Shown here: positions 1,372 to 34,693 of the stretch, piece by piece
Numbering within the stretch: the first letter of the stretch is position 1
Layout of the letters: every line of letters begins with the position of its first letter
Assembly (NCBI GenBank): GCA_022813865.1
Contig: JALDZX010000012.1
Span: 186,001-250,000, forward strand
Direction of reading: 5' to 3'
Source of the DNA: Xylographa opegraphella
Taxonomy: Eukaryota
Length of the DNA: 64,000 nucleotides
Program-made: the position numbers and the translations under genes
Notes under the pieces: model-generated
Told to the model about the DNA's origin: nothing
Databases searched by the model: none
The model's input: the letters and a program-made list of their open reading frames with translations, nothing else

Positions 1372-3094
1372 ATGGCACTTTCTAAAGGTCCAACTTCGAG
1401 CGAAATCACTACGGAATCTCTACCAGATCTTCTCGAGGATGACAGCAAAGTAAAACTTGGAGGCTTCGACATTGATGGCATCATCCGCGGCAAACTCATC
1501 TCCAAGAAAAAGTTTCTGTCAGTCGCCAAGGATGGCTTCGGCTTCTGTTCGGTCATCTTTGGCTGGGACATGCATGACCAGACATATTTCAAAGAGCTGA
1601 AAATTAGCAATAAGGAGAACGGCTATCATGATATCATCGCAATCCCAGATCTGAGCAGCTTCAGGAGGATTCCCTGGGAGGACGATGTACCCTTCTTTCT
1701 TGTCAGCTTCTTCGATCCTGACACTCATGAGCCTGTCAGCGCTTGTCCAAGGGGACTACTGAAAACGGCAATGGAAAAGTTGGAAAAACAGGGTCTAAGC
1801 GCAATGGCTGGCGGTGCGTGTCATAGGCCAGCCTAAATATTTATGGAGACTTGAGCTAACAAGCAATCTATCATAGCTGAGTACGAATTCTTCCAATTCC
1901 GCGTACCGACAGACACGCATATTCCCATCTCCGAACGTAATTCGTCTGCTACGGCGAAATTTCTCAAGGAGCATCCCGTGGACAGTCTTCCAGCTTTGAC
2001 AGAAGGCATGTTTGGCTACAGTTTGACAAGGCCGGTCCACAATCAGGAATACTACTATGGGATCTTTGATGCTTGCGAAAAATTCAAATGCAATATCGAA
2101 GGCTGGCACACAGAAAGTGGACCTGGAGTTTTTGAAGCGGTAATAGCCCCTTTGCATAAAGTCATTGGTAATCTTGCTCTCACTGAGGACTGAAACTACT
2201 CTTTCTAGGCCCTTGCGTTCGGTGAGATAAAGCAGATGGCAGATCGGGCCGGGCTCTTCAAGTTAGTCTCTCCTCGTGTTACCTTAGTAACAGCATTTGC
2301 AAACACAGACTCATTGATCTTTAAGATACGTTGTGAAATCTCTGGGGAGTAAATTTGGCATTACGCCATGTTTCATGGCGAAACCTCGACAAGGCCTCCC
2401 AGGCAACTCCGGCCACATGCATATCTCAATCGTGGACAGCTCCGGCAAGAACCTTTTTTACCGTGGCACCAAGGACGACAATGCAGAGTACCCTGATTTA
2501 GAATATCTTTCAGATATGGGGCGCCACTTCTTAGCAGGCCTCCTCGATGGTTTGCCTGACGTAATGCCCATTGTAGCACCAACTGTCAATTCTTACAAGC
2601 GACTTGTGGAGAACTTCTGGGCTCCGGTAACGGTCTCGTGGGGCTTAGAACATAGGGCTGCATCGATAAGGCTGATCGCACCTCCAACTGCAAGTCCCAA
2701 AGCCACCAGATTCGAAGTTCGAGTCGCAGGTGCAGATGCCAACCCCTTCCTTGTTTTATCAGCAATACTAGCACTCGGCTGGAGAGGGATTGAAAAGAAA
2801 ATGAAGATCGAAGTACCTCCCTTGGGGAAAGGCGAGGACGTTGGAGGAGCGTCGGACAAAGGCGTAAGACTGGCGAAGTCTCTGAAAGAGGCTACTACGG
2901 CGTTCATGCGGGAAGGCAGTGTCGCAAGAGAAGTGTTTGGAGATGAGTTTGTGGAGCACTTCGGAGGCACAAGGGAGCATGAGATTAGATTATGGGATGA
3001 GGCGGTTACCGACTGGTAAGGATATTCTGGTAAATTTGCTACACATGCTAATAAGGCTTTCAGGGAGGTTCGAAGGTATATCGAAACCGTTTAA
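1372..3094 (+). CDS. Glutamine synthetase-like protein (type I GS fold; probable gamma-glutamyl-amine ligase)
   Basis: Five exons (about 1372-1813, 1877-2139, 2209-2261, 2326-3015, 3064-3094) giving DIDGIIRGK, AEYEF, EGWHTESGPGVFEA, FMAKP...GNSGHMHIS, PTVNSYKRL, WGLEHRAASIR, RFEVRVAGADANP, AVTDWEVRRY. Confidence 0.93.
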
Positions 3095-4430
3095 TTATTT
3101 GCGTGGCCTGGCTATCACACTATACACAACATTTGTGGAGAAACACGATTACAACACTTGCAAGACCTGAAGGACGACCAACCCCCAAATCCTTCCAAAG
3201 CCGATGCGTTTGTTCGTCTCCTATTTTTAAGCGCAAGCGTCAACGACTGATTGGATAAATTGCGCGTCAAACGAAGGAAGTCGATCCCATATATGATATT
3301 GCTGCCATCACATCCTTTATCAAGTTATCCTCCGTTTATCACTCAGCAGTGATGCAGGATGACTCAAGGTCTATCATGCTGTCGACTGGTTCTTTGGGTA
3401 TCGACCACGATAAACACTCACGTATATCCCAACAAGTCGTGTTCATAATTGGAGATCTCCACGCGAATTGATCTTTATGGAACGCTGTGCCTTCCGAACA
3501 TGAAAGCGATATATGATATTCTGCTCTCTTCGACATGTCGACACCCGGTAGTAGCGTGATCTTCCCGCGCGGAAGTCAAGTCCATTGCTGCGCGTTGAAA
3601 ATTGGGCGAGAATTATCAACCGGCTAGTTGAACAAGCATATAGGAATGCTTACGAGTGAAGGAAGGGTCAGGATAGAGCATGTGCTCTAAAGAAAAGTGG
3701 TAGCTGATGTTCAACCAAGGATGGAATGAAAGCGGAACGGATCTCCACGATTTGTGTCGTCTTCATTTGCCCTGGAACCAACGACCGATTCCAGAAGCAT
3801 TAGAAGCAGGCAGTTGGATGTAATTAAAGAATAGGGGTTTGAATCAAGCTATTGAGGCAGCCACATGAGCAACATCGCTCGCACAGCTTTTCATTTTTGG
3901 AGTTGTGGAGTGTCGGTCTGGAAGAAGGTATCTGAAGATAGGCTGCAATACACCACCATTTCATTGCACGAAAATGGCACGATTTTCTTGTACTCCACAC
4001 ATTCATAGCTTATATCTGTAATCACATTACAGTGCAATTCCAGCATGATGGGCACAAGCGTATTATTTATTACACGTGCAGAACGTTCGTACATAAGGAG
4101 ACTCGACCCAAAGCGGCAACTCTAATAAAACACCACTAGGAATACGCGAAGTGGCTGTTAGCGATTTCACCACCTCAACGGCAGAGATCCATGACGTTAT
4201 GCTTCCAGGCCGCGAATTGCCGAATCCCGTTGGGAGCCCCACGGAGGAGCCTCCTGCCCCGCAATGGGTGACCGGTAGATATGAGTACCGCGATTGACAT
4301 TCTTCAATTCAATTCACGGTCACTACCTTTTATGATACACTGTGAGAAACTAGCTTCTCGCTCCACGAGAGCATTCAGATTACTGTACAGACCTCAAACC
4401 TTCGCGACTACAATTAGATATCGAGCAACG

Positions 4431-5529
4431 ATGGCGCAACACGGACATAGCGAGGTGGGCCATACACAGCTACAACCAACTATTGAAAACATGAGCTTCG
4501 CCTAATGCTAACAGGCTTGCTGCTCCGTGCCCCCTTCCAAGCACGACTACAAAGAGAAGGGCAGCTACTTTGAGATCGATGGCATGAAGACCTGTACGTT
4601 TCCCTCGTCAGCATTCACCACTAGCTCGCTGACCCGAGCCATAGACAAAACTGGCCCCTCGACCGCTACTTCCGCCGTCTTGATCATCTATGACATCTTC
4701 GGTTTCAGCCCGCAAACGCTGCAAGGTGCCGACATCCTAGCCCATGCGGACGACGAGCACCACCAGTATCAGGTCTTTGTGCCAGATCTCTTCTACGGCA
4801 AGCCTGCCGATCATTCATGGTACCCGCCAGATACAAAGGAGAAGGGCGAGAAGCTGGGAGCTTTCTTCCAGGGCCCTGCAGCTCCGCCGAAGACGGCAGA
4901 GAAGATCCCGAAGATCGTGAAGGAGATTGAGGAGAAGACGGGGGGAACGATCAAGAAGTGGGGCGGCTTGGGGATGTGCTGGGGAGGAAAGGTCAGAGAT
5001 TGTGTGTCTGTGCGTGGGCGCCTTGTGCTGATAAGCAGTTCGAAAGATCATTTCCCTGACCTCCACAAAAGGCACTGTATTCAGCGCTGTGGCAGAAGTT
5101 CACCCGGCGATGGTCGACCCTAAGGATGCAGAGGGCATCACCGTGCCGATCTGCATGCTTGCGTCTGGTGACGAAGATAACGAGGCAGTCGCCGGCTTCG
5201 AGAAGAACCTTAAAGTCAAGCACCATGTCGAGACATACCATGACCAAGTCCATGTAAGTTGTTCCCTTTGGTCGGGAAAGTCCTTCAACATTCGGATAAC
5301 ATTTACTGATGGCGATTTGCTCAGGGATGGATGGCCGCTCGGTAAGATATCTCTCTATTACAATGGCACGAAGCACAATCGGCTGACCATAAGCCAGCGG
5401 AGACCTCAAGGATGAAAAGGTTCGGAAAGAGTATGAGCGTGGCTACCAAAAGCTGCTAGACTTCTAGTGAGTCCCGATTTTACACAGCGTTGCTACTCTG
5501 CTAACGGTCGTAGCCACGAGCACTTGTGA
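4431..5529 (+). CDS. Dienelactone hydrolase family protein (AIM2-like alpha/beta hydrolase)
   Basis: Multi-exon: MAQHGHSE|ACCSVP, YDIFGFSPQTLQGAD, nucleophile elbow GMCWGGK, VHPAMVDP, LASGDED, QVH|GWMAAR; ends FYHEHL-stop at 5529. In-frame upstream ATGs at 4281 and 4332. Confidence 0.88.
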
Positions 5530-6478
5530 GTCGTTTTCGGAGGTTTGTACGATCCGCGGTAGTCTGTTGCATACCGCCGATACGTGAGGCTGATCGATGC
5601 AGACCTGATTCCGGAAAGCCGAAACTGTAAAGCTGAGGGAATAGTCTTAGGCGGCAGCATGATGTAGAATACCAGATAATGATGTAGTATGTTATGAATT
5701 CATGACCATTTATCTCAAGTGTACATAGAACAGACGAGTTGCCACTTTGCATACCATGATGCCAAATAATGATGGACCCTCGAATCCGGTCTCGAGTCAG
5801 CTCCTTCAAAAAATTGGCTTCAATCATGCACCTGGACTGGAACTTTCGCCGTAAATGCCACCTTATAACCCTCCAGCTCCAATGATCGGGACGCCTGCGG
5901 CCGAATACAGGCAAGCTTATTCGAGCTGGTACACTTGCGCCACAATGCCGCAGCCTAGCTTTTCAATCAAGCTACCTACCTGGTGATATCAAAGCAGAGT
6001 CGTTTCCAGCGGCAAGGATCACAGACAAGGGCCGATTCATCCCCATTGGAGGCTTGGAACTCGATGTTTGCGCCGTGCTGAACCGAAACCCCGCGGATCT
6101 GGACTTAGTTTGTCCACATCGATACTGCTGGACCTCGCTCAGCCAAAGCCGTTTCAGGCTCCACGCCAATGAATGCCACGAACGGCGGTTGTTGGCGGAC
6201 CGATAAGGGCTGAAGTGGAAAATTGGAGAAGTGGAGACCCGTTCGGATGGAAAGCCAGGCGTCGGTTGTTGCATATTGCTAAATAGTAGCCGTTGTGGGA
6301 TAGTTTCGTCCTCTTGGGGTTATGTCGATCTCTTCTAGCCTTATCGTGTCTGTCCAGCCTTGTCGTTACCCCAGTGTCGCCAACCGAGCGCATTCTATTG
6401 TGTTGTCTATATGTTGATATGCCGTTACACATATATAGCGCACAGGATCATCGACCTACTTCACTCGTTCCAGGGGCT

Positions 6479-9400
6479 TCAAACCAACCAGATGTTGAAT
6501 TGCTTCTTGCCCGAGGGGTCGATGGACGGATATTTGATCTTCAGTGCCTCGAGGTCATTCCACCGCTCTTGTTTTGTATATATCAGCGAAAGCTGCTCCA
6601 CGATCGCTAATCTCCGTGCACTATTCGTAGACAAGATCTTCTCCTTGGCAATGATGTCCAATACTCTCAAGCACTCCCTCTCAGCCTCCTCCATCCGTCC
6701 GGTTGCGGTGCGTATGTATATATACCCCAACATAGCAACGATCGAGTCTGGATGATCCTTTGGGATCGTGCTTAGCAAATCATCAAGAAGGGTCTCCGCC
6801 TCGGTCCAACGCTCCGCACGTATGTACGCTTGCGTCAGATTCGCCTTTGCCATTGACATGCCAAGGTGCGTTTCGCCAAGAGTGCGGCGAAGGATTGGCA
6901 ATACTTTCTCGAGCATCGTGATAGCCTCACGAGGGCGCAGGCGTAGGGTGAGCACTCTGGCCAAGTCGATCATTGACCAAAGAGTGTATGCGTGCTCCTC
7001 GCCCAGAAGCTTCTTTCGTACCCTTGCTACATTCGTCACCATCCGCTCGGCAACAGGAAGGCTCTCGGTAGCAGCGCAGAAGCTCATGCCGAGCTCGTTG
7101 CGGGTCATAAGAGTATCCAGATGGTTGAGCCCGAAGAGCCGCTTACGTTTCTTGAGCACATCAACGAGTAAGACTCGGCTGGCACGCTGCTCGCCGAGGT
7201 GGTGGTACGTACGAGCCAGATTAAACATAGCGGTTAAAGTCAAAGGATCGTCGGGGCCTAAGCGTTTCGTTAGTCCCGTAACAGCACGCTCGCCGGCTCG
7301 CTTGGACAGATCCAGTTTCCCTGCAAACCAGAGGGAAAGCGTTAGGTCCGACAGGGTGATACAATATGGAATATGTTCTGGTTTCCAAGGTGGCCATATC
7401 ATCCAGTCTGTGAGTGATGGGCGCGCGTACCAGTGAGTCTCGAGGACACTGCGTTGAGCCAGAATGCACGGTGCGATGTCGAAAAGATTGAAATTAGACT
7501 GTGCTAGACTGCACTGTGCTTGGATCGTGAGTGGGTTAAATCTGCCAAGTTTCTTTGTTCTAAATTCAAGAACGACGAGCTGGTAAATGCGAGCCCGCTT
7601 CCAAAGTCCATTTTCTGCAAATACCCAAGCAAAACGCTCAATCTCTACCGCTCTCTCAGCGGTATTCGGATCGACCGTACCATAGAGTTCTTTTAATGCT
7701 CGCAGGCAAGCCTCAATGTGAGGTAACAACGATCTCCGAAATCTTTGTCCTGACGCCTCCATGAATGGAGGTATGCATTGCGCAAGTAAAGCAGTGGCAG
7801 CACTTAGCCACTGTTTCTGGTCTGCTTCAGAGAGTCTATCCTTTGCCCATCGCTGAACAACTGGGTGCAGCGATAGAAGGCCCTTCTTCGAGTCGTGATC
7901 GATGATAGAGTAGTTGTAAAGGATACTCAGTGCTGTTCGTAGTCGAAATCTCGATGCCTCATCCCATTCCGGTCCGTTTTGGGTCGCGCCTGAGGATCCA
8001 CGGAGTCTCATCCTGTTCGTGATGCCGTCCCATGGTCTGAGAAACACAACCTCAGGTATGGAGTCGAAATGCATGAAGGCGGATATATGGATCAAATCCA
8101 CGGCATCTCTGTACTCTATGGATTCGCGACTCGCGATTCTCCGAAATGGAATCTCCCAGGTCGTGATTATATTAGCTTCATAAGCCGTGCTAATACTCTT
8201 GGACGTTATCATATCTCTCCTATGCCCTAGGTAGTGCCTCAAGTACATCTCCAACGTATAAATATTGCGGCGGATACTCGTGCCTGCGTTGGCTAATGCA
8301 AGTGCTAAATATCCCAGTTCTGATGCTATTTTTTGTGCAGTCTGCCGGTTACCTGACGTTGGAGAAGGTGGTTCATCTTGAGGAAACGCAGTTTTGAGTA
8401 GCAGACTGACAGCATCCACAGGGTCCATGCCACCAAAGCGGATATGGCCAACGGTGGCGTGAATCTCAACCGCAGGATTTCGAGTTGTGATCAGGATGTG
8501 GCCACTACGTCCAACAGGAAAGTATTTTGAGACATCCATTTCAGGGTCGTCAGCATTGTCTATCACAAGTAACCATGGCTTCGTGCATTGGGAGAGCCAA
8601 TGCATCCCACCTGTAAAGGTTGCTCCTTTCCCCATTTGCTGGCCAAGTGAGGCGAAGTTGGTTTCTGCATTCTCCTCGCTACTACCATCGATCCAAAACA
8701 CGCCCCAGTACCTTGATTTGTTGTCTTCTGCATATCTCAAGCAGAACTGGGTCTTGCCAGAACCGCCGAGCCCGTATATGACACAAACTTTGTGTCGATT
8801 CGCCTCGTCCAGGTGGTCGACTGGGCCTAACTTCTGTCGTACAATCTCCGCATGAAGGCGTCTACCAGTAAAATACGTACTGGAACACCGTGGCACAATA
8901 AACCATTCGTTCCTATAGGGCTTCTTTCCATTGTCGGAAATAAGATATCGCAGTGGTGGCTTCATCAAATTTTCAGCTTCAAGTTGTCGTTCGTATTCCA
9001 GTGCTTCCACATCCTTGTCCCATCGACACTGTATCAAAGCAGGCGCAGTCAAGATGTAGCGTGTCAATGTCTCAAGGACGACTCGATAACCATGATCATG
9101 GACACCCGAGAATTTGATCATACCATCGTGGGTTGCATACATACCACATTTCTCAGCATCGTCCCATGCCGGCGCCGCGGACTCCTCCTCTACAATGTAT
9201 GTACTCAACTCACCCAACGTTGTCTTTCTTTGCTCCCACAGATTATAAATAGCGAATCGTTTCATTAACGGTGCAAATTGGTCGGTGATCTCTTGTAGCA
9301 TCTCTGATCCTTTCAGAAGATTCAACACGGACTGGCTAGGGCCCAGCTTGTCGATTAGCGAGTGCTGCTGTAGTAATAGCAGGCTCTCCTTCCGGACACC

Positions 9401-9940
9401 ATTGTGAGGAGTTCCTAAAAACACGATTCCATAAGTGGAGATGAAGACTGAGCGAAGGTGCTCTACAGCTTGCGCACGTCTGGTAGAGGAGAACGCAAGT
9501 GCTCGCTTTACCAATAGACCCCCGAAGCCATGGCACACGAAGATGATAGGTCGCTTGAATGCATCTACCAACTGGCGGTCTGCGCAAAGCTCGGCCACGA
9601 GACTGTTTGCGAATGGCAGTATTCGATCCGCTGAGCCGTCGCCAGGAGACGAGAAGGCTTCAGCATTGTAATGGTAGACAAGTATTCGGACCTTGTAACG
9701 CTGGTGCGGAAACAAGTCTCGAAGCCAAAGGACGCCAGACGCAGTATCCGTCCATGCCTCGAGCCCACTCTCTCGAATGCCATGTACAGCAACAACGCTA
9801 TAGATAGTGAGTCTAGGCGCAGTGAAAGAGACAAAATTAAAGCAGAGGTAGGTGAGGACTTACTCGACCACAGGAGCGATTGTTGTAGCGTCTGAGGCAG
9901 ACTCGGAAGTGGTCGCCGCGCTCAGGTCTAAAATGGCCAT
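6479..9940 (-). CDS. Fungal NLR-like STAND protein: SesB-like alpha/beta-hydrolase domain + NB-ARC + TPR repeats
   Basis: Exon 1 9940-9864; exon 2 from 9797 (DVVAVHG...WLRDLFP...RPIIFVCHGFGG...FLGTPH); P-loop GLGGSGKT, Walker B LLVIDNAD, ITTRN, LALALA, LHPVV; about 42-aa TPR units (LGPDDPLTLTAMFNLA, FGLNHLDTL, LGEEHAYTL, LGETHLGM). Confidence 0.92.
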
Positions 9941-10483
9941 GATCTAAATTGCTGAAGCTACGGGAGGGTGGCAGCGCATATCTTTACGCTTATGGAGAGG
10001 TAGTACCATGACCATGCTCTATCAAGGAAGACATCAGAGTTTAAGTTACTGAATGAAATCCAACACTATATTCAATATGGAACTGGTGCGAGCCATGTCA
10101 TCGATTTCGTAGCTCCCACCCAGCCCCAGGCCCATCTTTCGTGTGACCTTGTGAGAATGGCCTCCACTAGATACTCGGCGGCCCTAGAGCCCGGAATAGC
10201 CTATGTCGGCACGTACTGCACTTGCGCGGCACGGATCACCAGCGGCTCGAAGTGCAGCAAATCACACTTAGCTTCGTCACACCTCCCAAGCTCCTTGAAA
10301 CGGGTGGCCGGACAAGAAATATGTACTATAGTGGGCGCCGCGTGCCGTCCCGTCACGTCTCTATATAGTACAATAATACCACACATGAGATCTGACCGTG
10401 CTGTTATTATTCTGCGTTCATTGTATAGTCTCTGGAAGTGTGCTTGATTCAATATAAACCATCTGTTATATTTCCATCCAAGC

Positions 10484-12186
10484 ATGGCGCAATCGTACTA
10501 TTATTTGATCGTGCTCTTCATTCTCGTCGCTTCTTATTGTCGACGACTAATTCGGAACTTCCAAACCCGCCACGCAAGTCTCGATCTTCAATTGAACCAA
10601 GGGGATGCTTACATTATCAACACAGGCAAACAAGAGATTCGCGGAGCAACATGGATGCCTCCCACCGCCTCGAATTGAGAATCAGAGACCTTGGGGCGTG
10701 GACCGACTCGAGCAGATCTTTCGGGCTGACAGAGAATGTCGCTTGAATGAGATCTTTCTGTTCCACTTTAGGCAAACAGGAAATACTGTCGAGCAAGTCT
10801 TTATTGGTTCAACCGCGTTTGATACAATTGAACCTGCCAACCTGGAGGCCATACTATCGACTAAATTCAAAGGTAAGTCAACGATGAATCCCCATTTGCT
10901 GTCTTTTCTCTCGAGCGATCTGATATCTAGCAGACTTTGATATGGGTCCACGTCGAGACATCACGTTCCCCATGTTCGGAGATGGGATCTTTACTCAGGA
11001 AGGCCCAGCATGGAAGCATTCTCGAGAGTTGTTGCGATCACCACTTCAGTACAAGCACTACGAGAATTTGGACGTTTTCAAGCAAAGCGTCGAAGACTTG
11101 ATCGACATTGTGCGCGGCCACCCCGGTGATATTGATCTGCAACCCCTCTTTTTCCGCTTATCACTCGATGTTACCACAGAATTTCTTTTTGGCGAGTCGG
11201 TGAAAAGCCTCAAAGCACCCAAGTCCGCTGATGAGCAGAGCTTTGGCGAAGCATTCAACACAGCACAGGATTTCGTGACCAAGCGTTTCAGACTCCCGGA
11301 TTTCTACTGGGCGATAGGCGGGGCCAAATTCAGAAAGGCTTGCAACGATGTACACTCTTTTGCGGACCAAATCATCGATCGTAATTTGTCACGCAGCTCC
11401 GAGAAAGGCCGGGTCTTCTTGGACGTTGTTGCTGAGAGTACAGCGGATCGTAGCGCCTTAAGGGGTCAGATTATCAACCTCCTTGCAGCGGGTCGAGATA
11501 GCACCGCCTGCTTGCTTGTGTGGACTTTCTTCCTGTTAGTTCGTCATCCAAAAGCTATGGAGAAGCTGCAAGCAGAAATCAACCGTAGCTGCTCTGATAT
11601 GGCGAATCTTACCAGGACAGATCTTCGAAATATGGGCTACCTTCAGAACGTCCTTAAAGAGACCTTGCGGTTATACCCATCAGTCCCTATAAATACTCGT
11701 ACACCCAACAAGGCCACGGTGCTTCCAACTGGCGGAGGCCCAGACCGTACAGCCCCAGTCTTCATTCCTAAGGGATCAACAGTGGCTTATTCAGTATATG
11801 CCATGCATAGACGGCCTGACTTATATGGCATGGACGCTGAGCTCTTTCGGCCAGAGAGATGGGACGAGGACATGCCATTGTACCACAATAAAACAAATGC
11901 AGCGTGGGGATACCTTCCTTTCAATGGGGGACCTAGGACGTGCCTCGGAAGTAAGTACCAGCTCAAACCAAAGAATCATGGCAAACATACTGATCCAAGT
12001 CTTTCAGTGGATTTTGCGCTTACTGAAGCCGCGTATACAACGGTTCGCCTCCTTCGGCAGTTTCCTGCAATGAGATTACCGGCAGGCGAAAAGGTCGAGC
12101 TCACGGGCGTAGAGAAGCAGACAATGACCCTTGTACTTCAATCTACAGAAGGCTGCATAGTTGACACTTCCGAGAGAGAACAGTAG
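10484..12186 (+). CDS. Cytochrome P450, CYP52 clan (alkane/fatty-acid hydroxylase-like)
   Basis: N-terminal TM helix; introns at about 10574-10625 (GC-AG), 10873-10933 and 11951-12007; motifs GDGIFTQEG..WKHSR, DLQPLFFRLSLD, AGRDST (I-helix), ETLR, PERW, FNGGPRTCLG (heme Cys). Confidence 0.93.
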
Positions 12187-12243
12187 AAGAATGATATATA
12201 ACAATACATAACATAGAGCAGACATATCAAAGGATTCCAAAAC

Positions 12244-13369
12244 CTATCGCAAGAGCTCGTACGCCTCCTGGGTACGTTTCGAGTTCAACATCTCAATAGC
12301 ATGCTTCCAACGTTGCGAGATGACTTCAGGTGCTTCCTTTGAGTAACGAATCAAAGCGGCCACCACGAGTCTATACCCAGGAGAGGTACGGCTCTCGAAC
12401 TTACATATATTTACGTGGTCATTAGGAAGCCCAGCTCGCTCCGTATTATCTATTATCGGTGCTGCGGAGGATTCTTCGACAACCTAATAGCTGTCAGCAT
12501 TGGAAAATCAGTTCGGAACGGAGGGTTGCCATACGTAGTCCTGAGTAATTCCCATGTTGGTTTTCACCTGTTCCCAGAAGAAGAAAATGTGAAAGTTCTT
12601 CATTAGCGGTACAAACATGTCGGTGATATTTTGCAGCACTTCTGAGCCTTCTTCCAGGGCATTGATAAGCTGTCCATCGGTGTCTAGGACCTTAGAGGGT
12701 ACCAAGGCTCCGATCATGCGGCTAGTGACTGAGGCGAGTTTAGCTTTATTACTCCCGTCATGAGGTGTGCCCAGAAACAGAATCGCGAATGTCGAGACGT
12801 AGATCGAATGGACGTGTTGAACAAATTTGCTCGTCCGGCTCGCGGAATACGCCAGTGCCTGGAATAGTCAACCTTAGCTTCCACAAGACGCCGTTCAACA
12901 AACTCGTTTCACGATAATGCCACCAAGTGAGTGGCAAATAAAGATGATGGGACGCTGCGTGGCATCTTCCAACTATTTCTCTACCTCAGTGACGGTTGCC
13001 GACATCACTTAGGGGAACGCGCTCACCTCGCGGTCTGCCACCAGCTCGGCAACCAGCGTCTGAGCATGCTGTAGGATTCGATCCGAGGAGGTCTTTCCCA
13101 ACACGGCGGTTACCATCGCATCATAACCATAAGTCAGGATTCGAGAGTTCTTCATGTTCGACGGTAAAAGAGTCGGGTCCTTGAGCCACATCTTCTCTAA
13201 TCCTTCCGTTGTCCATGTCCATGTCCTGAACGGGTCGCCGTTTAGCCCGTGCACGGCAACAACGCTGTGTACATTAGAAGGCTTCGCATAGTCGTGGAGG
13301 GCGCTTAACATACTCTACCACAGGATCACTGCCTCTGTAGAGCTCAGTCAAGCCAGCATTGGGCGTCAT
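12244..13369 (-). CDS. Stand-alone SesB-like lipase/serine hydrolase (DUF676/PGAP1-like), paralogous to the NLR N-terminal domain
   Basis: Spliced reading MTPNAGLTELYRGSDPVV|VVAVHGLNGDP...ILTYGYDA...LVADRE|LEDATQRPIIFICHSLGGIIVKR|ALAYS...FLGTPHDG...FFWEQVKT...DY|VVEESSAAP...NDHVNICKF...YELLR, stop at 12244-12246. Ser codon TCA at 12928-12930. Confidence 0.9.
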
Positions 13370-14115
13370 GTATATAGAGATTGCTTAATCAAGTTTGAAG
13401 TTGGGAGTACTATAGACATCAGGTATAATGTAAATCACAATTTCTGGAGAAGGCCACAGGAATTTTGTGGAAGAACATAAGAAGAGACTGCTAAGCGCCT
13501 CGTAGACTCGTGGTTTCGTGTGACGACTAAGCAAAGCTGCGCCGCCCACTCTGCTTCCTCGAACATCACGCCTTGAATCCTCGATAAAGAAACGAACCAA
13601 TTACATCAGCCAGATACTCGGTTTGACGCTTAAGATAAATTCCGATACAAACAACCCGTATCCTATGGTGGTTCTGATACCAAATGTGCTGTCCGAACAA
13701 TTCTAAAAGCCTTCCTGGACAACATGAAACATTGCTATAATTATAACATTATCGAATTTGTCCTGCCCTTAGAAGGAGGCCAAGGAAGTATTGATCTTGC
13801 AAACAGAATTTGACAACCGGAAGCAAAATTAAATCTTTTCAATAGTAGATGATAGGTACGGGACTCGATGCTGCTGTCTTCCCTCTTCGTCAGACTCTAC
13901 GATTGTAGGGTCTAGCATGGGTCTTGGCTTGCCGGTGGGCGTTGGAGATACATATATGTGCAGCTCGACGCACCCAGCCACGATTACGATGGTGCTTTGG
14001 CAGCCCCTTCCGGATGATCTGGACAGGTCTCCGAGAGCTCAAAGACTCACCTTCTCCTATGCGCTGGGTACCTATCATATCGCATTAGCCAGATACATGT
14101 ATCAGGAAAACAGCA

Positions 14116-14980
14116 ATGGCTGAAATCCTCGCCATAGTCGCTTTTCCCATTGCAGCCTACGATACAGTACAAGCGTTCTACAAGGCCGGCAAAACTATAC
14201 ACGAGCGGATACTGAACTACCAAGATGCAGCTGAGATCGTGGGGAAAGTCTCAGAATTTGTAAACAGCATACATGATGGGGACCTTCAGGTACAGATAGA
14301 AGTGCCGCAATGGCTCTTCCAGCAGTCAGAAGTTCGTGGCACTCTGAAGGACAATGTGTCATCTCTTCTGAAGAAGCTCAAAGCCGAGCTTGTCGATATC
14401 TGTAAGCCATTGTTGAACCTCTCCGACTCCCAAGGAGAATGGAGAAGGATTGGCTCTACAATTCAGAAAGACAAGAAAGGACTGATTAAAGGTATGAGCA
14501 GCCTTAGGGCGTGGAAGGATGACTTCTAGCGGGAGGTGTCGATTATCGATATGATGAAATGAAAAGTTCCAGATCCGCTGCTGCTGACGTCGCCCGAGGT
14601 GTTTATGCCATAATTCGGAGAGGATGAGATTGTGATCGAGGGCAGACCAATCATGCGCGGTAATTCTAACATCAAAGAGCCAGAAGATCCCAAGGTTGCG
14701 CTGCGACCAGTCACTGTTCTAATCGAGAAGCTTCATGACGAGGGGGACACCGGACTCCCGGAAGTCCAAGGTATAGCTGCCCGTACTAGCTTAGATACTG
14801 TACAAGCCCAACAGAAGAATACTGAAATGCCTTGAACACCGCCGTCGTGAGTCTGCCGTCGAGCTTGGTGTTCGAGTTTCCACCATGGTTCGACGATCCA
14901 ATGACACTACGATCTCTCCTCATGTACAGTGCCAAAGTTGACCTTGGATACCAGTGGCCGCTCGAGTTTCGCTTCATACT
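14116..14980 (+). pseudogene. Degenerate N-terminal helical (HeLo-like) + kinase-like protein gene, truncated
   Basis: Amphipathic helical ORF MAEILAIVAFPIAAYDTVQAF... interrupted by in-frame stops at 14527 (TAG), 14560 (TGA) and 14611 (TAA), then frameshifted fragments RILKCLEHR..EL / VFEFPPWFDDPMTLRSLL...WPLEFRF resembling the kinase-like region of fungal HeLo-kinase proteins; similarity ends at about 14980. Confidence 0.6.
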
Positions 14981-15204
14981 TTATTGTGAGTAATAGTTGT
15001 AATGCGTGATAAGTGCGTTCTCTTCTATTCGTTATCCTTCAATTGTTATTATTGAAGTATTTAAGCCTTCACAGTGGGAAGAAATGTTACCAGTAGTAAC
15101 TGTGTGAATGGTAGCTGGTCAATGAAGAAGCTCCAAATTGTTACTACCATGGTTGACTTTCCCCGTATATCGCTGTCAATAAAATGTATGAACTTCTACA
15201 ACAG

Positions 15205-16107
15205 TCAACTAAAGGCATTCTGTATACCTTTATACCATCTTCCCCACAACCCTTCGCTCTCCTTCCCACTTTTCACCGCCTTCTCTGGCACCCTCCCTTG
15301 CACACACCTCGCCATCGCCTTCGCGCACACCATCCCCTCATCCGCCGTCTCCAGTGTCGCCTTCACAGCCAACTCACCCACCCCATTCCGCTCCTCCTCC
15401 GCCTCGTCCAGCTCCGCCCTAAGCACATACCACCTCCTCGCCAGCGTCGGCTTCAGATACCTCACCTGCATCATCTCCGCCTTCCCCTCCCCTACCATCT
15501 CCAGCCCCTCCTGCAGCACCGTCGCGATCGCCCCCCCGTGCGTCACCCCCGGCCAGCCCGCTAGTGCACCGCCGAAGTACACTACTGTTATCCCACGTCG
15601 CTCCTTCGCGTTCCAGAACACTCGGTAGACGCCGAGGCCGCGCGAGCCGGCCATTGAGTTTGTGGTTAAGGCACTGGGGGCGGGGGCGCGCTCGACCCAT
15701 CCTTCAGGGTGGGAGCGTAGCTCGCGGACTATAGGGAGAGAGGAGAAGGTGCTGTTGAGGGTGCTGAGGGCGGCGAGATCGGCAGGCGTGGAAGGGAGAG
15801 GGAGAGGGGGCGGGACGAGGAGGACTCGGACATAGGAGCCGGTTGTCAGGCCAAGGAGGATGAAGAGCGCGGAGTAAATGAGTGTGCGGTAGCGGGTAGT
15901 GGTAGGGCGTGGTTGCGGCGACGCTGGTTGAATGTGAGCAGTGGCGGCAGGGAAGGGAGTTTGCTGTGCTGCTGAAGGGTCGGAGGGCGGAGGAGCGGAG
16001 AGGGTAGAATTGAGCTTTCGAATGTTAGGCAGAAAGCGTGTCGGCGTTCGGGAGAGTGTGAGGTGAGCACTGGGCCTCCATGAATGGAAGCTTTGTCTGA
16101 GTATCAT
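15205..16107 (-). CDS. Mitochondrial hotdog-fold thioesterase (PaaI/4HBT, Fmp10-like)
   Basis: Arg/Ser-rich presequence, one TM segment, LTTNSMAGSRG, YFGGALAGWPGVTHGGAIATVLQE, YLKPT. ATG at 16107; no intron evident. Confidence 0.85.
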   Translation of the reverse strand: MILRQSFHSWRPSAHLTLSRTPTRFLPNIRKLNSTLSAPPPSDPSAAQQTPFPAATAHIQPASPQPRPTTTRYRTLIYSALFILLGLTTGSYVRVLLVPPPLPLPSTPADLAALSTLNSTFSSLPIVRELRSHPEGWVERAPAPSALTTNSMAGSRGLGVYRVFWNAKERRGITVVYFGGALAGWPGVTHGGAIATVLQEGLEMVGEGKAEMMQVRYLKPTLARRWYVLRAELDEAEEERNGVGELAVKATLETADEGMVCAKAMARCVQGRVPEKAVKSGKESEGLWGRWYKGIQNAFS

Positions 16108-16698
16108 GATCGGAAGAGGAGAACTCAACGTGTATGCTGCTTGTGGTGGAGTTCTGCGGACTCGGTGTCGGAGCACGGTGAGTTAGTGCTTAATATGGTT
16201 AGACGTCTCGCTTCTTTGTAACCCTGGCGAGGACGGTGCTTGTGGGAAGGAGCTAGGGAGCTTAGCGTCGAGGATAAAGGTATATCCTAACCTCGGGCGG
16301 AAGCTATCCTAAAGTAATCAAAGGTAGGCTTATTTTTCACCGCTGACGACCGTACCTTATGTGCCTCACCATACCTAAGCAGTCATGTCGCAACTATTAT
16401 CTCGCATTCTCAGCAAAGCTCTAAATATAATAAAACTCTGGGAGTGCCTCGTATTGGGCGCATGGCTTGATCCATCCGTTCCTGATTGCTCAGCAAAGTG
16501 ACGTTCTAAGGCATTCTGACGCTGACCTCGCATCTGTTGCTGAGCAACAATTGCAGTACTTTTGCACCTATAGATTTACTATATAGCTGTATGCATTGTC
16601 GTAGTCCAAGCTGCGTAATCGGTCACCAATCCCCATATTCATCGTTGCCGAAGATTCGCAATTTTTCCGATTAAAAACTTCTCATAGTCATTTCTGCA

Positions 16699-22446: not shown

Positions 22447-23565
22447 ATGCCTACCGTCGAGATATTCGATAGCTATCCTCCTTTCCCCAAAGATGTGCCC
22501 TCAGCTGTTCTTCCCTGCTTGTCGTACAACGAACTTCTGCAGGGCAGTAATAAAGAATCCCTGGCCCTCTTCCAGGCATGCAGAACAGATGGATTTTTCT
22601 TATTAGACCTCCAGGGCTCCAGCGAAGGCGAGGCCTTGTTGAAGTGCGCACAACGTGTCTTTGACTTGAGTAAGGTGATCCTCGAGCTCGATCAAGAGAC
22701 GTTGATGAAATATCACTTTAAACCGCCTACAAACCTTTGCGGGTATGTGCGACTATGTTGGCTCTCATTGAGAGTCCAAGGCTAATAATTTCTTGATCCA
22801 TGCAGATACAAACCCGTGGGACAGATGAAACTTCAAGACGGCAGCCCCGATGCCATCGATTTCTATGCCCTCGGACAAGATGATCTATTCGCCAAACCGA
22901 CTCTCAAAACGTGCCCCCAGCCCATCGTAAGCAACTACGAGCTTTTCTATGACTTTTTCAACCAAAGCCATCAAACAGTTTGCCACATTCTCTCTCATCT
23001 CGATCAGCATTTGGACCTTTCCCTAGGAACTCTCGCCTCGTTCATCTCTCAAGATAAACCCTCCGGTACCATCATCCGTATGCTGCGCTGCCTACCTCAA
23101 AGACTTGGTACCCACCGCACCAACCTCACCGGTCACACCGACATGGGCTGCGTGACTCTGCTCTTCAACATCGTTGGTGGACTTCAAATACTGCCCTCCG
23201 GCTCCGACAACGCCGAGGAGAATTGGCGCTATGTCCAGCCCAGACCAGGCTGCGTGCTCGTAAACCTAGGAGACGCGATGGTCCAGTGGAGTGGAGGAAT
23301 CTTACGGAGCAACTTGCACCGTGTGGCAACACCGCCTGGGCGCCAAGCGGAATGCGAACGCTTCAGTCTGGCCTACCTGACGCGGCCGGAATCGAGCGCG
23401 AGTATGCAGCGATTGGAGAGCGGCAGTGTGATACCTCGGCTGGCTAATGGAGAAGAAAAAGAGACACTCAACGTCAAGGATTGGGAGTCTTCGAGGGCAG
23501 CACTTTACATGGTTGGAAAGATGGTGCCACAAAGTACTGGGGGGATTCTGAATGGAGTCCATTAG
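22447..23565 (+). CDS. 2-oxoglutarate/Fe(II)-dependent dioxygenase (IPNS-like, DIOX_N + 2OG-FeII_Oxy)
   Basis: PPFP..V, LFQACRTDGFFLLD; intron at about 22743-22806; HTDMG (HxD), GGLQIL, NLGD, SNLHRV (distal His), RFS (2OG-binding RxS). Confidence 0.92.
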
Positions 23566-23691
23566 CTATTGTGACAAGAAAGTATTCTTTCTTTTCGGAC
23601 TACCAAGTTATTTGCCCTACCTATCTCTTGCCCACAATTTTTGGGCGCGTCTACCCGCTTCCGTAGCAAGACACTCTATCAAAGCCGCTAG

Positions 23692-24486
23692 TTACTGAAT
23701 CATCAAAGCCTGGTCAATGCCCCTCCTAATCGCACGCACACTACCCTGCACCGCCTCCTTTGCGCCCGCTCCCGGAATCCCATGGCCTTCTCCGTGGACA
23801 TACACGCTCCTACACGACTCCTCACAGATATCAGTCAGCACCTTCCCCTGGCCTGGCCACAAGGTATCGTTGCTGGCCCATATGTTTACCGTCGGGATCT
23901 TGATCAGTGGCGACGCCTTCGTAGGATCGATGAGCTGAAGCTTGCCCATCGCTAACGCTTGCGGGTCCAAGACCGGGCCGCAGGAGAAGAATATGGCGCA
24001 CTTGAACGGCGTAGCGACGTGCTGTTGCTCGCATTGGACGAGATACGTCGCAGCCAGGCAAGCACCCTGCGAGAAGCCGAGCACGCCATCGAACGGCCCT
24101 TCTTCGGAGACGTACGTATGCAGCTGCGAGAGGGCCAGAGCCGCGCTAGGCGCGGACGTGTCGTCATAATATTGATAGTAAGCATCCGTTGCGGGATAGA
24201 AGGATTTGATCTCTAGATTGAGCAGAACGTCAGTGACGGCGGAACACGCGGGACGGGTGCTGTCAAGAGCGAGGAGCCGAGGTGTTTCGTGCCTGACGCT
24301 ATGGCGCATCCCACGGTCCCCTCCACGAACTCAAACGTGTGGTGACGATCCATTTCGAAGCGGATTGCGGCTGCAGATATTGTGTCAGTTCTTTTGCGGC
24401 GGGACAGATAGTGGGGTCGCCGTACAGGTTTGTATCTCGAGCACTTGGCTATTCGTGCCGAGGCCATGGAGACAAAGGAACCGCAT
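23692..24486 (-). CDS. FSH1-family serine hydrolase (LovG/CitA-like trans-acting esterase)
   Basis: ATG at 24486: MRFLCLHGLGTNSQVLEIQT, FEFVEG, EGPFDGVLGFSQGA (GxSxG), IPTVNIWASND, HGEGHGIP; two introns. Confidence 0.92.
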
Positions 24487-25805
24487 CGTAAGGGGGGATG
24501 GAGGTTTGGGACACCGGAACGTGAAGTTTCGCGGGAGTGAGACTCCGTTCTCGAACTGGGCTCCTGGGGGGGAAAGTACGAGAGCAGCGAGCCATGTTCT
24601 TCAATCCCGCAAGTTCATCATTCCATGCGTACCGTGCAACCTCCTCGGGTCACTGCACCAATCGGTTCATCTGCGGGGGAGTTGTCTTAATGCTCACAGG
24701 ATTGGAGTTCGGCTGCGCCATGCCACCATAACGTGCAAACGTATCCTACTTGGTATTTCAGGGTATTAAATCTTAGCGCCTTCAGAGTACCGAGTACGTA
24801 AGTTAGGTTCACAACCACTCCGCGATTCCGTGATACGATGAGAGTTATTATAATCCTTAGGGATCATAAGACTTATGCTCTATTCGTGTAGTTGTGCTGT
24901 GAGTATCAGGACTTATTTTTTGGGCCAGTGAGGAAAGATAGAAATTAGAGCCCTATCCGAGGCGCTAACGTATGTCGGACATTTGATAAGCTATCTTGGA
25001 ACGCCAAGCCCTCGCTCACGGGTACGACGGCCCGAGCCATACGATCTACCTTGTTTCGGATAACATCGGAATATTTCAGCTCCAATGATGCCGATGGGGA
25101 GGGAAAGGTGCCAACCAACCGTCAGCTACCTTAGCCATTGAGGTACGATACCAACCACTTCCATTTGAGAGAAAGAGTTACTGATCGGCAGTAGCGTCGG
25201 TCGGGAATGCAGCATGCTGCAGCACCGTTACCTGCTCTGTGCATGCTGCGGCTGACAGATGCTATTGTCATACCTTCTCGTTGAGGTCAATTCTCCGTCG
25301 CTTCGGTGAAACTGTGGGTGCCTCTCCTGCAAGATTGCGACACACTTTCTGTGATAGGACTTACCGCTGTTTACTTCGGCTGGGATGGTAGATCGCGTAT
25401 CTCAGGCTAGTCGTTCTGTCTTACCCATGATTCCAACGAGCTGTGGACTCATGGTGCAGCTGATATCAGCTTGGCCGAAAGCAGCAAGCCAGCTAGACTT
25501 TTGAGCCGTCTTTCAAGACCAACCAGATGGCGACAATTCCAGACGGTAGCTGTGGAACGGTGAAAGCCTGGCTTCGGTGTGACCAAGAGGCAGCACACAA
25601 CCAGTGGAGAGTAACTTGAAGGAATTTCGATGCTACGAACATTGTGCGGCTGCATTCCTCCGAGTACATTTCTTCTGCTTGATCACCATCCTCTTAGTAT
25701 TTGTGTGTTAGAACATCACGGTTTGGCATAATTTATAGGTAGGGGTTGTGGATCTTGATGCTTCATTACCATACTTACCGTATTGTCTTGGATAGCTGCT
25801 AGGAA

Positions 25806-28800
25806 ATGGCGCGCCTTACCAATAGTGTTGCATCATCAAAGCCTGGCCAGGCTTCTTCTGCAAGCTCGTGCAGTCCAGGTATTTGCCAAGACGAAGACAA
25901 AATTGGTCCCGTAGCAGTTGTGGGGTTTTCCTTCGGATTTCCCCAGGATGCTACTTCATCAGATGCTTTTTGGGAGATATTGATGAAACAACGAAATACT
26001 TTGACCCCGATTCCTACGGACCGCTGTAATATTGATGGACTTTACCACCCAGGTCCGAACCGGCGTGGTCAAGTAGGTTGGTCTCTCAAGTCAGCTTTAT
26101 ATGTTGACGGAGGCCTCAGATCCGAGTCCAGGGTGGTCACTTTCTTCGGGAAAGCCTCGCTGCATTTGACGCTCCGTTCTTCTCAATCTCGAACACAGAC
26201 GCGGCAGCCATGGACCCACAACAGCGTGGACTACTAGAATACACATATAAGGCTTTGGAGAATGGTAAGTCCAGCATCAGAAAGTTACATCTCAGATTAT
26301 GACATTTACAATACAATAGCTGGCATGCCTCTCAGCCGTGTTAGCGGCACGAAGACTTCAGTGTATACGGGATCATTCTCTACTGACTGGCAGCACCTTG
26401 TGTTCAAAGATCCAGAGCAATGCCCGCCTACAGCCGGACTTGGTTGTCAGCCATGTCTTAATGCGAACCGCATAAGCTGGTTCTTCAACCTTACTGGAAA
26501 TAGTGCTAACATTGATACGGCTTGCTCCAGCAGCTTAGTAGCTCTGGATCTTGGCTGTAAGGAACTGCTCAGGGGAGAGACGGAGATGGTACGTCTCGTG
26601 TACTCACTTTCAAAACACGAAGTTGATACATAATGGCTTATAGAGCATTGTGGCTGGTGCTAACATACTACTTTCACCAGCTAACTTGATTTCCCTTGAA
26701 AACTTGGGAATGTTATCTCCAGATGGTCAGTGTTACAGCTTTGACCATCGAGGTAACGGGTATAGCAGAGGAGAGGGATTTGGTGTCTTGATTTTGAAAC
26801 GCTTATCGGATGCTATCAAAGATCACGACACTATACGAGCCATCATTCGGAACTCGGGCTGTAATCAAGACGGCTACACTCCCGGCCTTACTCAGCCAAA
26901 TCCTCTTGCCCAGGAAGCCCTGATCCGCGATACATACTCTACTGCAGGTCTGACAATGGATCCCGTCAGATTCTTGGAGGCTCATGGGACTGGAACTCCT
27001 GTTGGCGACCCCATTGAATCAAACGCTTTCGGCACAGCATTCAGGCAAAGCCGAACACTGCAAGATCCACTTTGGGTTGGCGCTGTCAAAGCGAACATTG
27101 GCCACCTTGAAGGATGCAGTGGTATTGCAGGAGTAATCAAAACCATTCTGATTCTTGAGAAAGCAATTATCCCCCCAAATACGAACTTTGAACAGACCAA
27201 CCCGAAAATTGATACTGAATTCTTGCATATACAGGTACCAAAACCTTCAGAATTCCCTCTGTTTTGCTACTTACTAACATGTTATGTAGTTCCCTCTAAA
27301 GGCAATACCATGGCCTACGAACGGAATCCGTCGAGCATCCGTCAATTCTTTCGGTAACTCTGGCACTAATGCTGTAAGACTATAGTGATTGAAATTTATA
27401 CTTAAGAAAGGGGCTTTGCTTACTTTGGTTTCAGCATGTTATACTCGACGATGCTTTCCATTACCTCCACAATCATGGCCTTCTTGGAAGTCACGTTACT
27501 GTTGAACGCCCACCAACTCAAGCCCATCTTACTACACCATTACTGCAAGTCCCATCTTTCGATTCACATACTCATATCAATGGTTGGAACTTCGAGCCTG
27601 CGAGACCAAAGCTGTTGATGTTTTCGACACACGACGAGAATGGAATCAAACGCCAGGCGAATGAATTAGCGTCATATTATCAGAGGGTTACTATTTCCCC
27701 AGAACGTTTCCCAGCCTATCTGAATAATCTGGCGCACACGCTGAGCAACAGGAGAAGCTCTTTTCCATGGACATCTTTCACTATCGCAAGATCGTTGGAG
27801 GATCTACAAAAGCTTAGCACCCTTGTGTCATCTGCACAAAAGTCGATCCTACACCCATCAATCGCCTTTATATTTACTGGTCAAGGTGCTCAGTGGGCAG
27901 AGATGGGCTATGAGTTAATGACTTACCAAGTCTTCGCGCAGAGTCTCCATGAGGCAGAGGAACACCTTCATGATCTTGGTAGTCTGTGGCGTTTACGCGA
28001 GGAGATTGCCAAGAAAGAAGGATGTTCCAATATCAATGAGCCAGACTTGAGCCAGCCTGTGACTACAGCTGTCCAGATTGCGCTTGTTGACCTTCTCAAT
28101 AGCCTCAATGTTCATGCCACAGCCGTTGTTGGACATTCTTCTGGCGAAATTGCAGCTGCTTATAGCATCGGCGCTATCTCGGCCAAAGCTGCTTTAAGAA
28201 TCGCATATTGCCGTGGTAAAGTAGCCGCTACGCTTGCAAAGTCCAGCTGCAAGCAGGGAACCATGATGTCTGTCGGCCTTTCCGAGACTCAACTTCAGCC
28301 TTTCCTTGAGGAGATGGCTTCACAGTCAAAAGGATGCGATTTGACTGTGGCGTGCATCAACAGTCCAAAGAATTTGACTATTTCCGGAAGTACAATTCAT
28401 ATCAGTACTTTGCAATCGATCTTGGAAAGGGAGAAGATATTTTGCCGCAGGTTGCTGGTCGATGTCGCATATCATTCTCCGCATATGATGAGTGTTGTGG
28501 ATGACTATCGTATAATGATTCAAAACATAGAGAGAGGCAACAATTTCCAACAGGCAAGCACTATGATATCTTCTGTAACTGGAAGGAAAGTGATGGCGGT
28601 TGAGCTTACGTCACCTGAATACTGGGTCTCAAACATGGTGTCTTGTGTACAGTTCTCTGAGGCAGTTACTCACCTGTTATCTCGATCTGTACGCAGAATT
28701 CGGAAGAAACTTGATCTGAGCCATCGGAACGAGTTTTGTATTAACATGCTGATTGAGATTGGTCCACATTGCGCGCTCCAAGGTCCAATCCGAGATATTC

Positions 28801-34561: not shown

Positions 34562-34693
34562 NNNNNNNNNNNNNNNNNNNNNNNNNNNNNNNNNNNNNNN
34601 NNNNNNNNNNNNNNNNNNNNNNNNNNNNNNNNNNNNNNNNNNNNNNNNNNNNNNNNNNNNNNNNNNNNNNNNNNNNNNNNNNNNNNNNNNNNN
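34562..34693. other. Assembly gap (run of N) flanked by poly-C and poly-G tracts
   Basis: Ns from 34562 to 34693. Confidence 0.99.

Follow-up and report, generated by a model that had tools for sequence, protein, structure and literature searches.

A conserved fungal gene cluster of an NLR with a serine-less hydrolase domain, a CYP52K-like P450, and a putative lipase

Within 64,000 nucleotides of the Xylographa opegraphella genome (GenBank assembly GCA_022813865.1, contig JALDZX010000012.1, positions 186,001 to 250,000; hereafter, the window), three intact genes stand together at 6479-13369: a NOD-like receptor (NLR), a cytochrome P450, and a stand-alone alpha/beta hydrolase. The NLR begins with a hydrolase domain of its own, a paralogue of the stand-alone enzyme in which the catalytic serine is missing, and a sequence-only reading had proposed that the receptor uses this domain to recruit the active enzyme and that the P450 oxidizes the fatty acids so released. 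Two questions follow: what might trigger such a receptor, and through what might it act? Outside allorecognition, what sets off fungal NLRs has been named as an open question (PMC12881547; papers are cited by PMC number). The module described here joins a receptor that is conserved between fungal classes to specific candidates for an input enzyme and an effector, which makes both trigger and output testable.

The Three Genes

All three genes were modeled from splice signals, and the models contain zero internal stops. The NLR gene (6479..9940, minus strand; exons 9940-9864 and 9797-6479) encodes 1131 aa, in which a serine-less alpha/beta hydrolase domain (8960..9797, minus; residues ~27-305) is followed by an NB-ARC module (7775..8914, minus), with Walker A GLGGSGKT at 8773-8750, Walker B LLVIDNAD, and an LHP motif, and then by a sensor region of nonidentical TPRs (6482..7774, minus). 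The P450 (10484..12186, plus strand; exons 10484-10573, 10626-10872, 10934-11950, and 12008-12186) is a CYP52K-like protein of 510 aa with an N-terminal hydrophobic anchor and the I-helix, ExxR, and heme-cysteine motifs expected of such an enzyme (AAGRDST, ETLR, and heme Cys449 at 11941-11943, plus). The stand-alone hydrolase, SesB/SERAC1-like and 308 aa long (12244..13369, minus), is assembled from five exons (13369-13314, 13264-13027, 12972-12904, 12858-12535, and 12483-12244). Pfam matches for these proteins are NB-ARC, TPR_10/TPR_12, p450, and a weak Abhydrolase_6.

The P450 lies between the other two genes much as had been described (about 540 bp divergent on one side and 57 bp convergent on the other): 543 bp separate its start codon from that of the NLR (9941..10483, a candidate bidirectional promoter), and 57 bp separate its stop codon from that of the hydrolase. 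The earlier description of the three genes was accurate in its motifs also, and the 64-kb window holds no second copy of the module. Among named proteins, those most similar to the window's belong to Xylographa, a lichen-forming genus.

Conservation of the Cluster

Is the neighborhood of these genes an accident of one genome? In the three triples of accessions that we looked up, from the Dothideomycetes Clohesyomyces, Lojkania, and Westerdykella, the NLR, P450, and hydrolase are consecutive, in that order, in all three. NLR and P450 accessions are also consecutive in Aspergillus turcosus and A. melleus, as are P450 and hydrolase accessions in Parastagonospora nodorum, and locus tags are either neighboring or two apart in Icmadophila, Bathelium, Ikaeria, Squamulea, Xylographa soralifera, Lecanora helva, Fonsecaea, and Xylaria arbuscula, species that span Lecanoromycetes, Dothideomycetes, Eurotiomycetes, and Sordariomycetes. 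We also scanned metagenome contigs with a P450 alignment and took the best 80 of 488 confirmed stretches, which make up 79 loci (L-numbers below), many of them near-duplicates, so that counts overstate independence. A pseudo-hydrolase NLR is present at 18 of the 79 P450-anchored loci; 3 of these 18 contigs end too early, and at 14 of the 15 with sufficient flank, an intact CHSLGG hydrolase is present. The triad is thus linked elsewhere in Pezizomycotina, as the sequence-only reading required of itself.

Gene order and orientation differ among loci (L006, L009, and L013). An all-against-all comparison of open reading frames (ORFs) from the loci revealed no fourth conserved gene, and only two of the genes neighboring the module in the window gave any match in the loci, the one beside a module being an Abhydrolase_3-type gene (33%, L007). 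One might suppose that the linkage has no shared function and is the relic of an old tandem duplication, and indeed, the hydrolase domains are paralogous and some loci show partial losses. We find this barely credible, however, for genes that have stayed together across four fungal classes despite inversions and reordering and while their neighbors changed. The comparisons support a deeply conserved, co-inherited unit, and on this sequence evidence, the three genes very probably form one functional unit.

A Hydrolase Domain Without Its Serine

The stand-alone hydrolase and the NLR N terminus align nearly full length (BLASTP, 134/294 identical, 46%, E 2e-78), bearing out the end-to-end alignment noticed at the outset. 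The codon at 9527-9529 (minus) reads GGC, as had been reported, and gives Gly116 within CHGFGG, where a catalytic serine would be expected; the partner has TCA, giving Ser113 within CHSLGG. Among the best 120 of the 700 NLR homologues listed, the column of the nucleophile shows Gly in 87, Glu in 15, Asp in 3, a gap in 15, and Ser in none, so that Ser is found in 0 of the 105 that have a residue at this position and the domain lacks what an active serine hydrolase must have. The loss of serine is therefore conserved among orthologues, and Gly116 as a sequencing error or private mutation is ruled out by the same column. The presumed catalytic acid and the histidine, Glu214 and His249 in the window NLR, are retained in 119 and 118 of the 120. 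The homologues with Glu (CHEFGG) or Asp at the nucleophile are mostly from Sordariomycetes.

The ratio of nonsynonymous to synonymous substitution rates (dN/dS) of the pseudo-hydrolase domain is 0.08-0.11 in five distant pairs, similar to that of NB-ARC and the P450; in three very close pairs, the values are noisy (0.25-0.30). A FastTree tree of hydrolase domains (166 rows picked for coverage, among them representatives drawn from 1.84 billion searched proteins) separates serine-less domains (71 rows, support 99), free hydrolases (31 rows, 95), and the serine-bearing domains of SesB-like NLRs (64 rows, 98). IQ-TREE, applied to 14 triads and 13 other SesB-like domains, recovers the same split, the outer branch having support of 100, the pseudo-domains 90, and the free hydrolases only 54. 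The pseudo-domain and the free hydrolase are, then, mutually nearest lineages among the SesB-like domains sampled, and if ordinary SesB-like NLRs are assumed to be the outgroup, the two would derive from a single duplication, after which serine was lost once. Together, these data support purifying selection on the pseudo-domain and an ancestral loss of its serine. Among gene models, that of P0172 (Alectoria sarmentosa) joins a degenerate hydrolase to a degenerate pseudo-domain, as in a decaying module.

The partner, for its part, keeps the presumed catalytic residues: Ser113 (12930-12928, minus), Glu217, and His252 in the window, with Ser in 49, Glu in 56, and His in 51 of 56 aligned rows of free hydrolases, each position at the expected strand end. 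We predict on this basis that the enzyme is catalytically intact, the acid being assigned from topology. The word "lipase" is a putative label from fold and motif. DUF676 scores above its cutoff in three homologues (P0123, P0152, and P0224), and some homologues are named "protein SERAC1" in their source records; another source label, "ribonuclease P/MRP subunit," can be set aside, as fold and Pfam indicate a hydrolase. A structural model of the Icmadophila orthologue (mean predicted local distance difference test score, pLDDT, of 75.6, with a poorly predicted lid region) resembles lipases, thioesterases, and PGAP1 at Z 14-16.5 without a standout match; in VIA-align, a Bacillus lipase gives Z 16.5 (root mean square deviation, rmsd, 3.3; 220 aligned), and PGAP1 gives Z 14.8 (rmsd 3.4; 215 aligned). 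Foldseek returned only generic alpha/beta hydrolases and no clue to substrate.

By inspection, no additional shared amyloid motif is evident in the module, the same outcome as in the sequence-only reading: the hydrolase has no C-terminal extension, ending at the long helix that, in the NLR, leads into the NB-ARC linker, and the NLR begins at the homologous first strand.

What might a hydrolase domain without a nucleophile be for? It might trap a ligand or act as a decoy, binding a lipid ester that is formed or broken down by the P450 and hydrolase or baiting inhibitors aimed at the hydrolase. GID1, which binds gibberellin, offers a parallel, and the loss of the nucleophile alone, with Glu and His in place, is reminiscent of an engineered substrate trap. 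However, the Glu or Asp found at the nucleophile of 18 of the 105 homologues would be expected to alter the pocket, and the domain occupies an effector position, where it is interchangeable with a HeLo-like domain (below); as a trap, it would leave the NLR with no output domain. We consider the trap or decoy improbable. Homotypic recruitment of the hydrolase by the pseudo-domain, taken alone, seems to us probable, as it fits a conserved unit, an ancestral loss of serine, the pairing of nearest lineages, and a free hydrolase that, at the metagenome loci, is present only beside NLRs bearing the pseudo-domain (the exception is L014, with hydrolase and P450 and no NB-ARC-TPR gene).

The NB-ARC and TPR Regions

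The remainder of the NLR is that of a STAND protein (signal transduction ATPases with numerous domains). PF00931 scores 28.5 bits against a cutoff of 23.5, with both Walker motifs present, and the model of the Icmadophila orthologue (pLDDT 84.6; predicted template modeling score 0.64) matches the folds of a STAND-TPR protein, ZAR1 resistosome entries, and Apaf-1. The C-terminal repeats, of a type that forms superstructures, are evident both as TPR_10 and TPR_12 matches and as helical repeats in the model. In fixed 42-residue windows, their mean pairwise identity is 9% and the maximum 26%, with no repeat homogenization; in this, the receptor differs from the highly internally conserved (HIC) allorecognition NLRs, in which repeats are near-identical. 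A weak PADLOC match (PDLC02918) and a below-cutoff NCBIfam FxSxx_TPR match were not used. Each part of the NLR is 46-63% identical between fungal classes.

Three homologues with the pseudo-hydrolase-NB-ARC-TPR architecture (P0064, P0071, and P0074, from Verruconis, Tothia, and one Joint Genome Institute protein; 1727-1766 aa) carry a HET domain at the C terminus after a short linker, either a real fusion or, possibly, an artifact of gene calling. A profile made from these three, run over the 79 loci, found only one short HET-like fragment (L001, 1700-1890).

The P450 and the Constant Core

The first intron of the P450 gene (10574-10625, plus) is a 52-nt GC-AG intron, and the spliced model aligns without gaps to the first 109 residues of homologue P0251; a 5' frameshift is thereby ruled out. 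Gene callers that miss this intron yield N-truncated models, as many P450 homologue records show. In one N-terminal stretch compared by eye, 65 of 76 residues are identical to CYP52K11, and the protein also matches CYP52K8 (PMC10608907 supplement). Membership of subfamily K would call for more than 55% identity to its named members, and the assignment is provisional. "CYP52K" does not occur in the literature text searched, where we found no function or genomic context for the subfamily, and by sequence, there is no close P450 structure in the PDB (the best is CYP97, E 6e-38).

In a tree of P450s (90 rows; loci with fewer than 280 residues recovered were left out), every NLR-linked P450 falls in one clade (63 rows; 100 by the Shimodaira-Hasegawa-like approximate likelihood ratio test, SH-aLRT). 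If a locus is called informative when an NLR is visible or 3 kb or more lies upstream, then a related NLR is found at 26 of 32 informative loci of this clade, compared with 0 of 17 in the CYP52-like clade outside it. The NLRs in question begin in more than one way. At five loci (L034, L035, L037, L040, and L047), the N terminus beside the P450 is HeLo/SesA-like (ESM Atlas 0.96 and a weak PF17111 match), and at three (L031, L042, and L043), it is shorter than 100 residues; no free hydrolase was seen at any of the eight, two of which (L040 and L047) have less than 1.5 kb of downstream flank. The short N termini hold a stretch that we take to resemble HET-s-related amyloid motifs. The general pattern is described in PMC9815663. 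The amyloid-like stretch is shared by L042 (9242-9120, minus) and L031 (~6860-6990, plus), with no partner effector seen nearby.

Despite these different beginnings, the HeLo-like and short NLRs share an NB-ARC clade with the serine-less ones (63 rows, support 99) in a tree of 74 rows whose outgroup comprises only 11, chosen by hydrolase likeness. The HeLo-type NB-ARCs form one group (99), nested at support 85. Set A4 was drawn from 120 hits and one cluster member, with 56 NLR fragments and partial models left out. As judged from these sequences, the constant core of the module is the P450 together with NB-ARC-TPR, which is the new point of our analysis.

Evolutionary distances can be read in the same direction. 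Over 12 triads (L003 and L068, near-duplicates, were omitted from this Mantel set), pairwise distances correlate at 0.84 for P450 and NB-ARC, 0.76 for hydrolase and pseudo-domain, and 0.49 for hydrolase and P450, all values being inflated by shared ancestry. The partial correlations are 0.78 and 0.67 for the first two pairs and ~0 for hydrolase and P450 given either part of the NLR. All of this is compatible with, and no more than compatible with, the NLR as the hub of the module.

These results bear directly on the linear pathway that had been proposed, in which the NLR activates the hydrolase, fatty acids are freed, and the P450 oxidizes them to a signal or defense compound. The triad is conserved, as such a pathway would have it, CYP52 members do oxidize alkanes and fatty acids (PMC10608907), L014 has the P450 and hydrolase without an NB-ARC-TPR NLR, and one Talaromyces gene model fuses P450 and hydrolase (probably by gene calling). 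Yet the P450 clade stays beside NB-ARC-TPR at the eight hydrolase-free loci and at L001, where the hydrolase has decayed, and the correlation of hydrolase with P450 disappears once the NLR is taken into account. The claim that the P450 acts on what the lipase releases is weakened, and we now think the pathway unlikely. (L025 resembles L001: its hydrolase is cut down to a frameshifted last exon, and its NLR and P450 are intact.)

The P450 might instead be a coregulated response or brake that shares a divergent promoter with the NLR and, alongside whichever effector is present, detoxifies the trigger or dampens the response, the hydrolase still being recruited homotypically. Such a role would suit the head-to-head arrangement of P450 and NLR at most loci, as well as the presence of the P450 irrespective of effector type. 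However, at L006, L028, and L031 the NLR follows the P450 in tandem, so that the linkage outlasts a shared promoter, and P450 distances follow those of NB-ARC and TPR (0.77 and 0.78), although shared ancestry predicts likewise. To us, the brake is quite unlikely. On our best reading of the sequences, the P450 would act on the input side, as the maker of a ligand or as a guarded protein, and not downstream.

A Possible Mechanism

If the pieces are put together, the membrane-anchored CYP52K-like enzyme would oxidize a fatty acid, an alkane, or a foreign lipophilic molecule, and the NLR would sense the product; alternatively, the NLR would guard the P450 itself. STAND proteins oligomerize on activation, and this receptor may do likewise. 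The serine-less domains, once clustered, could bind and activate the paralogous hydrolase, taking the adaptor job that amyloid motifs perform in nwd2/het-S or het-eN/sesA/sesB. The hydrolase might then cleave or remodel membrane lipids, leading to regulated cell death or a defense state. In sister loci, the HeLo-like domain on the NLR would stand in for both recruitment and execution. We hold this whole chain, from P450 input through the NB-ARC-TPR receptor and homotypic activation of the hydrolase to lipid hydrolysis and cell death or defense, tentatively, as a possibility a little short of an even bet.

A number of facts weigh against it. Six informative loci of the P450 clade have no related NLR: at L024, the P450 is broken; at L027, it is apparently broken at the 3' end; at L036, retrotransposon sequence lies upstream of it; at L039 and L041, it is apparently alone; and L014 has P450 and hydrolase without the receptor gene. 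L001 retains an intact NLR and P450 with the hydrolase reduced to a frameshifted last-exon remnant (11300-12700). The near-duplicate loci, the short flanks, the small outgroup of the NB-ARC tree, and the shared ancestry behind the distances, all mentioned above, belong here as well. The placement of the P450 upstream is drawn from only two or three independent N-terminal swaps. Finally, conservation between species is not the rule among fungal NLRs, and the strong conservation and nonrepetitive TPRs of this one differ from typical immune NLRs (PMC13449251).

Two of these loci have genes of other kinds nearby. At L027 (1000-8166), a kinase-like-NB-ARC-TPR gene and a 520-aa ORF without a Pfam match lie beside the P450, and the P450 and hydrolase of L014 are flanked on each side (1950-5910 and 12430-16365) by a serine-bearing SesB-NACHT-ankyrin NLR.

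The same conservation invites the thought that the receptor is a nonimmune STAND switch for lipid homeostasis or development, with the same wiring and with lipid remodeling that stops short of cell death. Identity of 46-63% between classes, dN/dS ~0.1, and repeats free of homogenization would all suit such a switch, given that, in Podospora, conservation among seven close species is found for only ~11% of NLRs (PMC13449251). Against it stand the sister NLRs with HeLo-like domains, the three homologues with C-terminal HET, and a module that has been duplicated and lost in places, and we judge it decidedly improbable.

Our preferred reading, with the P450 on the input side of an immune receptor, can also be put more broadly. 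An ancient P450-coupled NLR family may exist in Pezizomycotina, in which a CYP52K-type enzyme makes a lipophilic ligand (a self-damage lipid or a foreign compound) for its cognate receptor and the outputs are interchangeable. They would include the pseudo-hydrolase/hydrolase pair, the HeLo-like domain, the short amyloid-like N terminus, and perhaps HET. In this general form, the idea is doubtful, with a real chance of being right. Were it right, it would provide a fungal NLR that is triggered by a small molecule of enzymatic origin and uses a pseudoenzyme as its adaptor, and related receptors that keep the P450 despite another output domain do point to an undescribed P450-linked signaling system.

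Relation to Known Systems

The closest known system is het-eN/sesA/sesB of Nectria haematococca (PMC3321046), in which an NLR is also clustered with a stand-alone SesB-type hydrolase, the effector acts in trans, and a region of homology links effector and NLR N terminus. What is shared in Nectria is a short motif at the C terminus, and the receptor is of the NACHT-ankyrin type; in our module, a whole hydrolase domain of 290 aa is shared and is inactivated on an NB-ARC-TPR NLR, and a P450 is added. Our module thus has the clustering of effector and NLR without, by inspection, the amyloid motif. SesB-like NLRs with class 1 effectors (PMC4986451) likewise carry an N-terminal SERAC1-related alpha/beta hydrolase and likewise swap N-terminal domains on a shared NOD. 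They are treated in that paper as direct enzymatic effectors, whereas the serine-less clade would be an adaptor, a class 2 role; the word "catalytic" is absent from the paper's main text. The NLRs counted as lipase effectors thus include an entire clade in which the catalytic serine is missing. The two- and three-gene sensor-effector clusters nwd2/het-S, PNT1/HELLP, and protease-gasdermin are similar in plan, and a guard model is invoked for fungal NLRs, but their signal passes by amyloid templating or proteolysis (PMC12881547). "P450" is absent from the main text of the fungal NLR papers compared, that review included. We found no description of an NLR-P450-hydrolase cluster in the literature searched, which was mostly nonsubscription; supplements of cluster surveys could list one. 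In addition to amyloid motifs and proteolysis, the serine-less clade suggests a third route by which the signal could reach an effector in trans.

In plant immunity, EDS1 with PAD4 or SAG101 shows that paralogous lipase-like domains can pair in the service of NLRs without catalysis being needed in every partner. The likeness to EDS1/PAD4 drawn earlier holds as an analogy of paralogous lipase-like pairs and goes no further: the plant proteins are separate from the NLR, have an EP domain, and act downstream of TIR products, whereas the pseudo-domain is fused to the NLR, and Pfam found no EP domain or plant-lipase match in the NLR or hydrolase homologues.

Other Features of the Window

An ORF of 137 aa (14116-14529, plus) lies 746 bp divergent from the hydrolase and is HeLo or HeLo-like (ESM Atlas 0.94, family unsure). 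It had no match in the 79 metagenome loci, and its frame runs on through several stops, so it is probably a decayed gene. Farther away, by ORF translations only, a reducing-type polyketide synthase with 2-oxoglutarate-dioxygenase-like and serine-hydrolase-like neighbors occupies 22789-33592, and in a more GC-rich part beyond a run of N near 34600, glycosyltransferase-like and NAD-dependent epimerase-like ORFs lie at 43539-49136.

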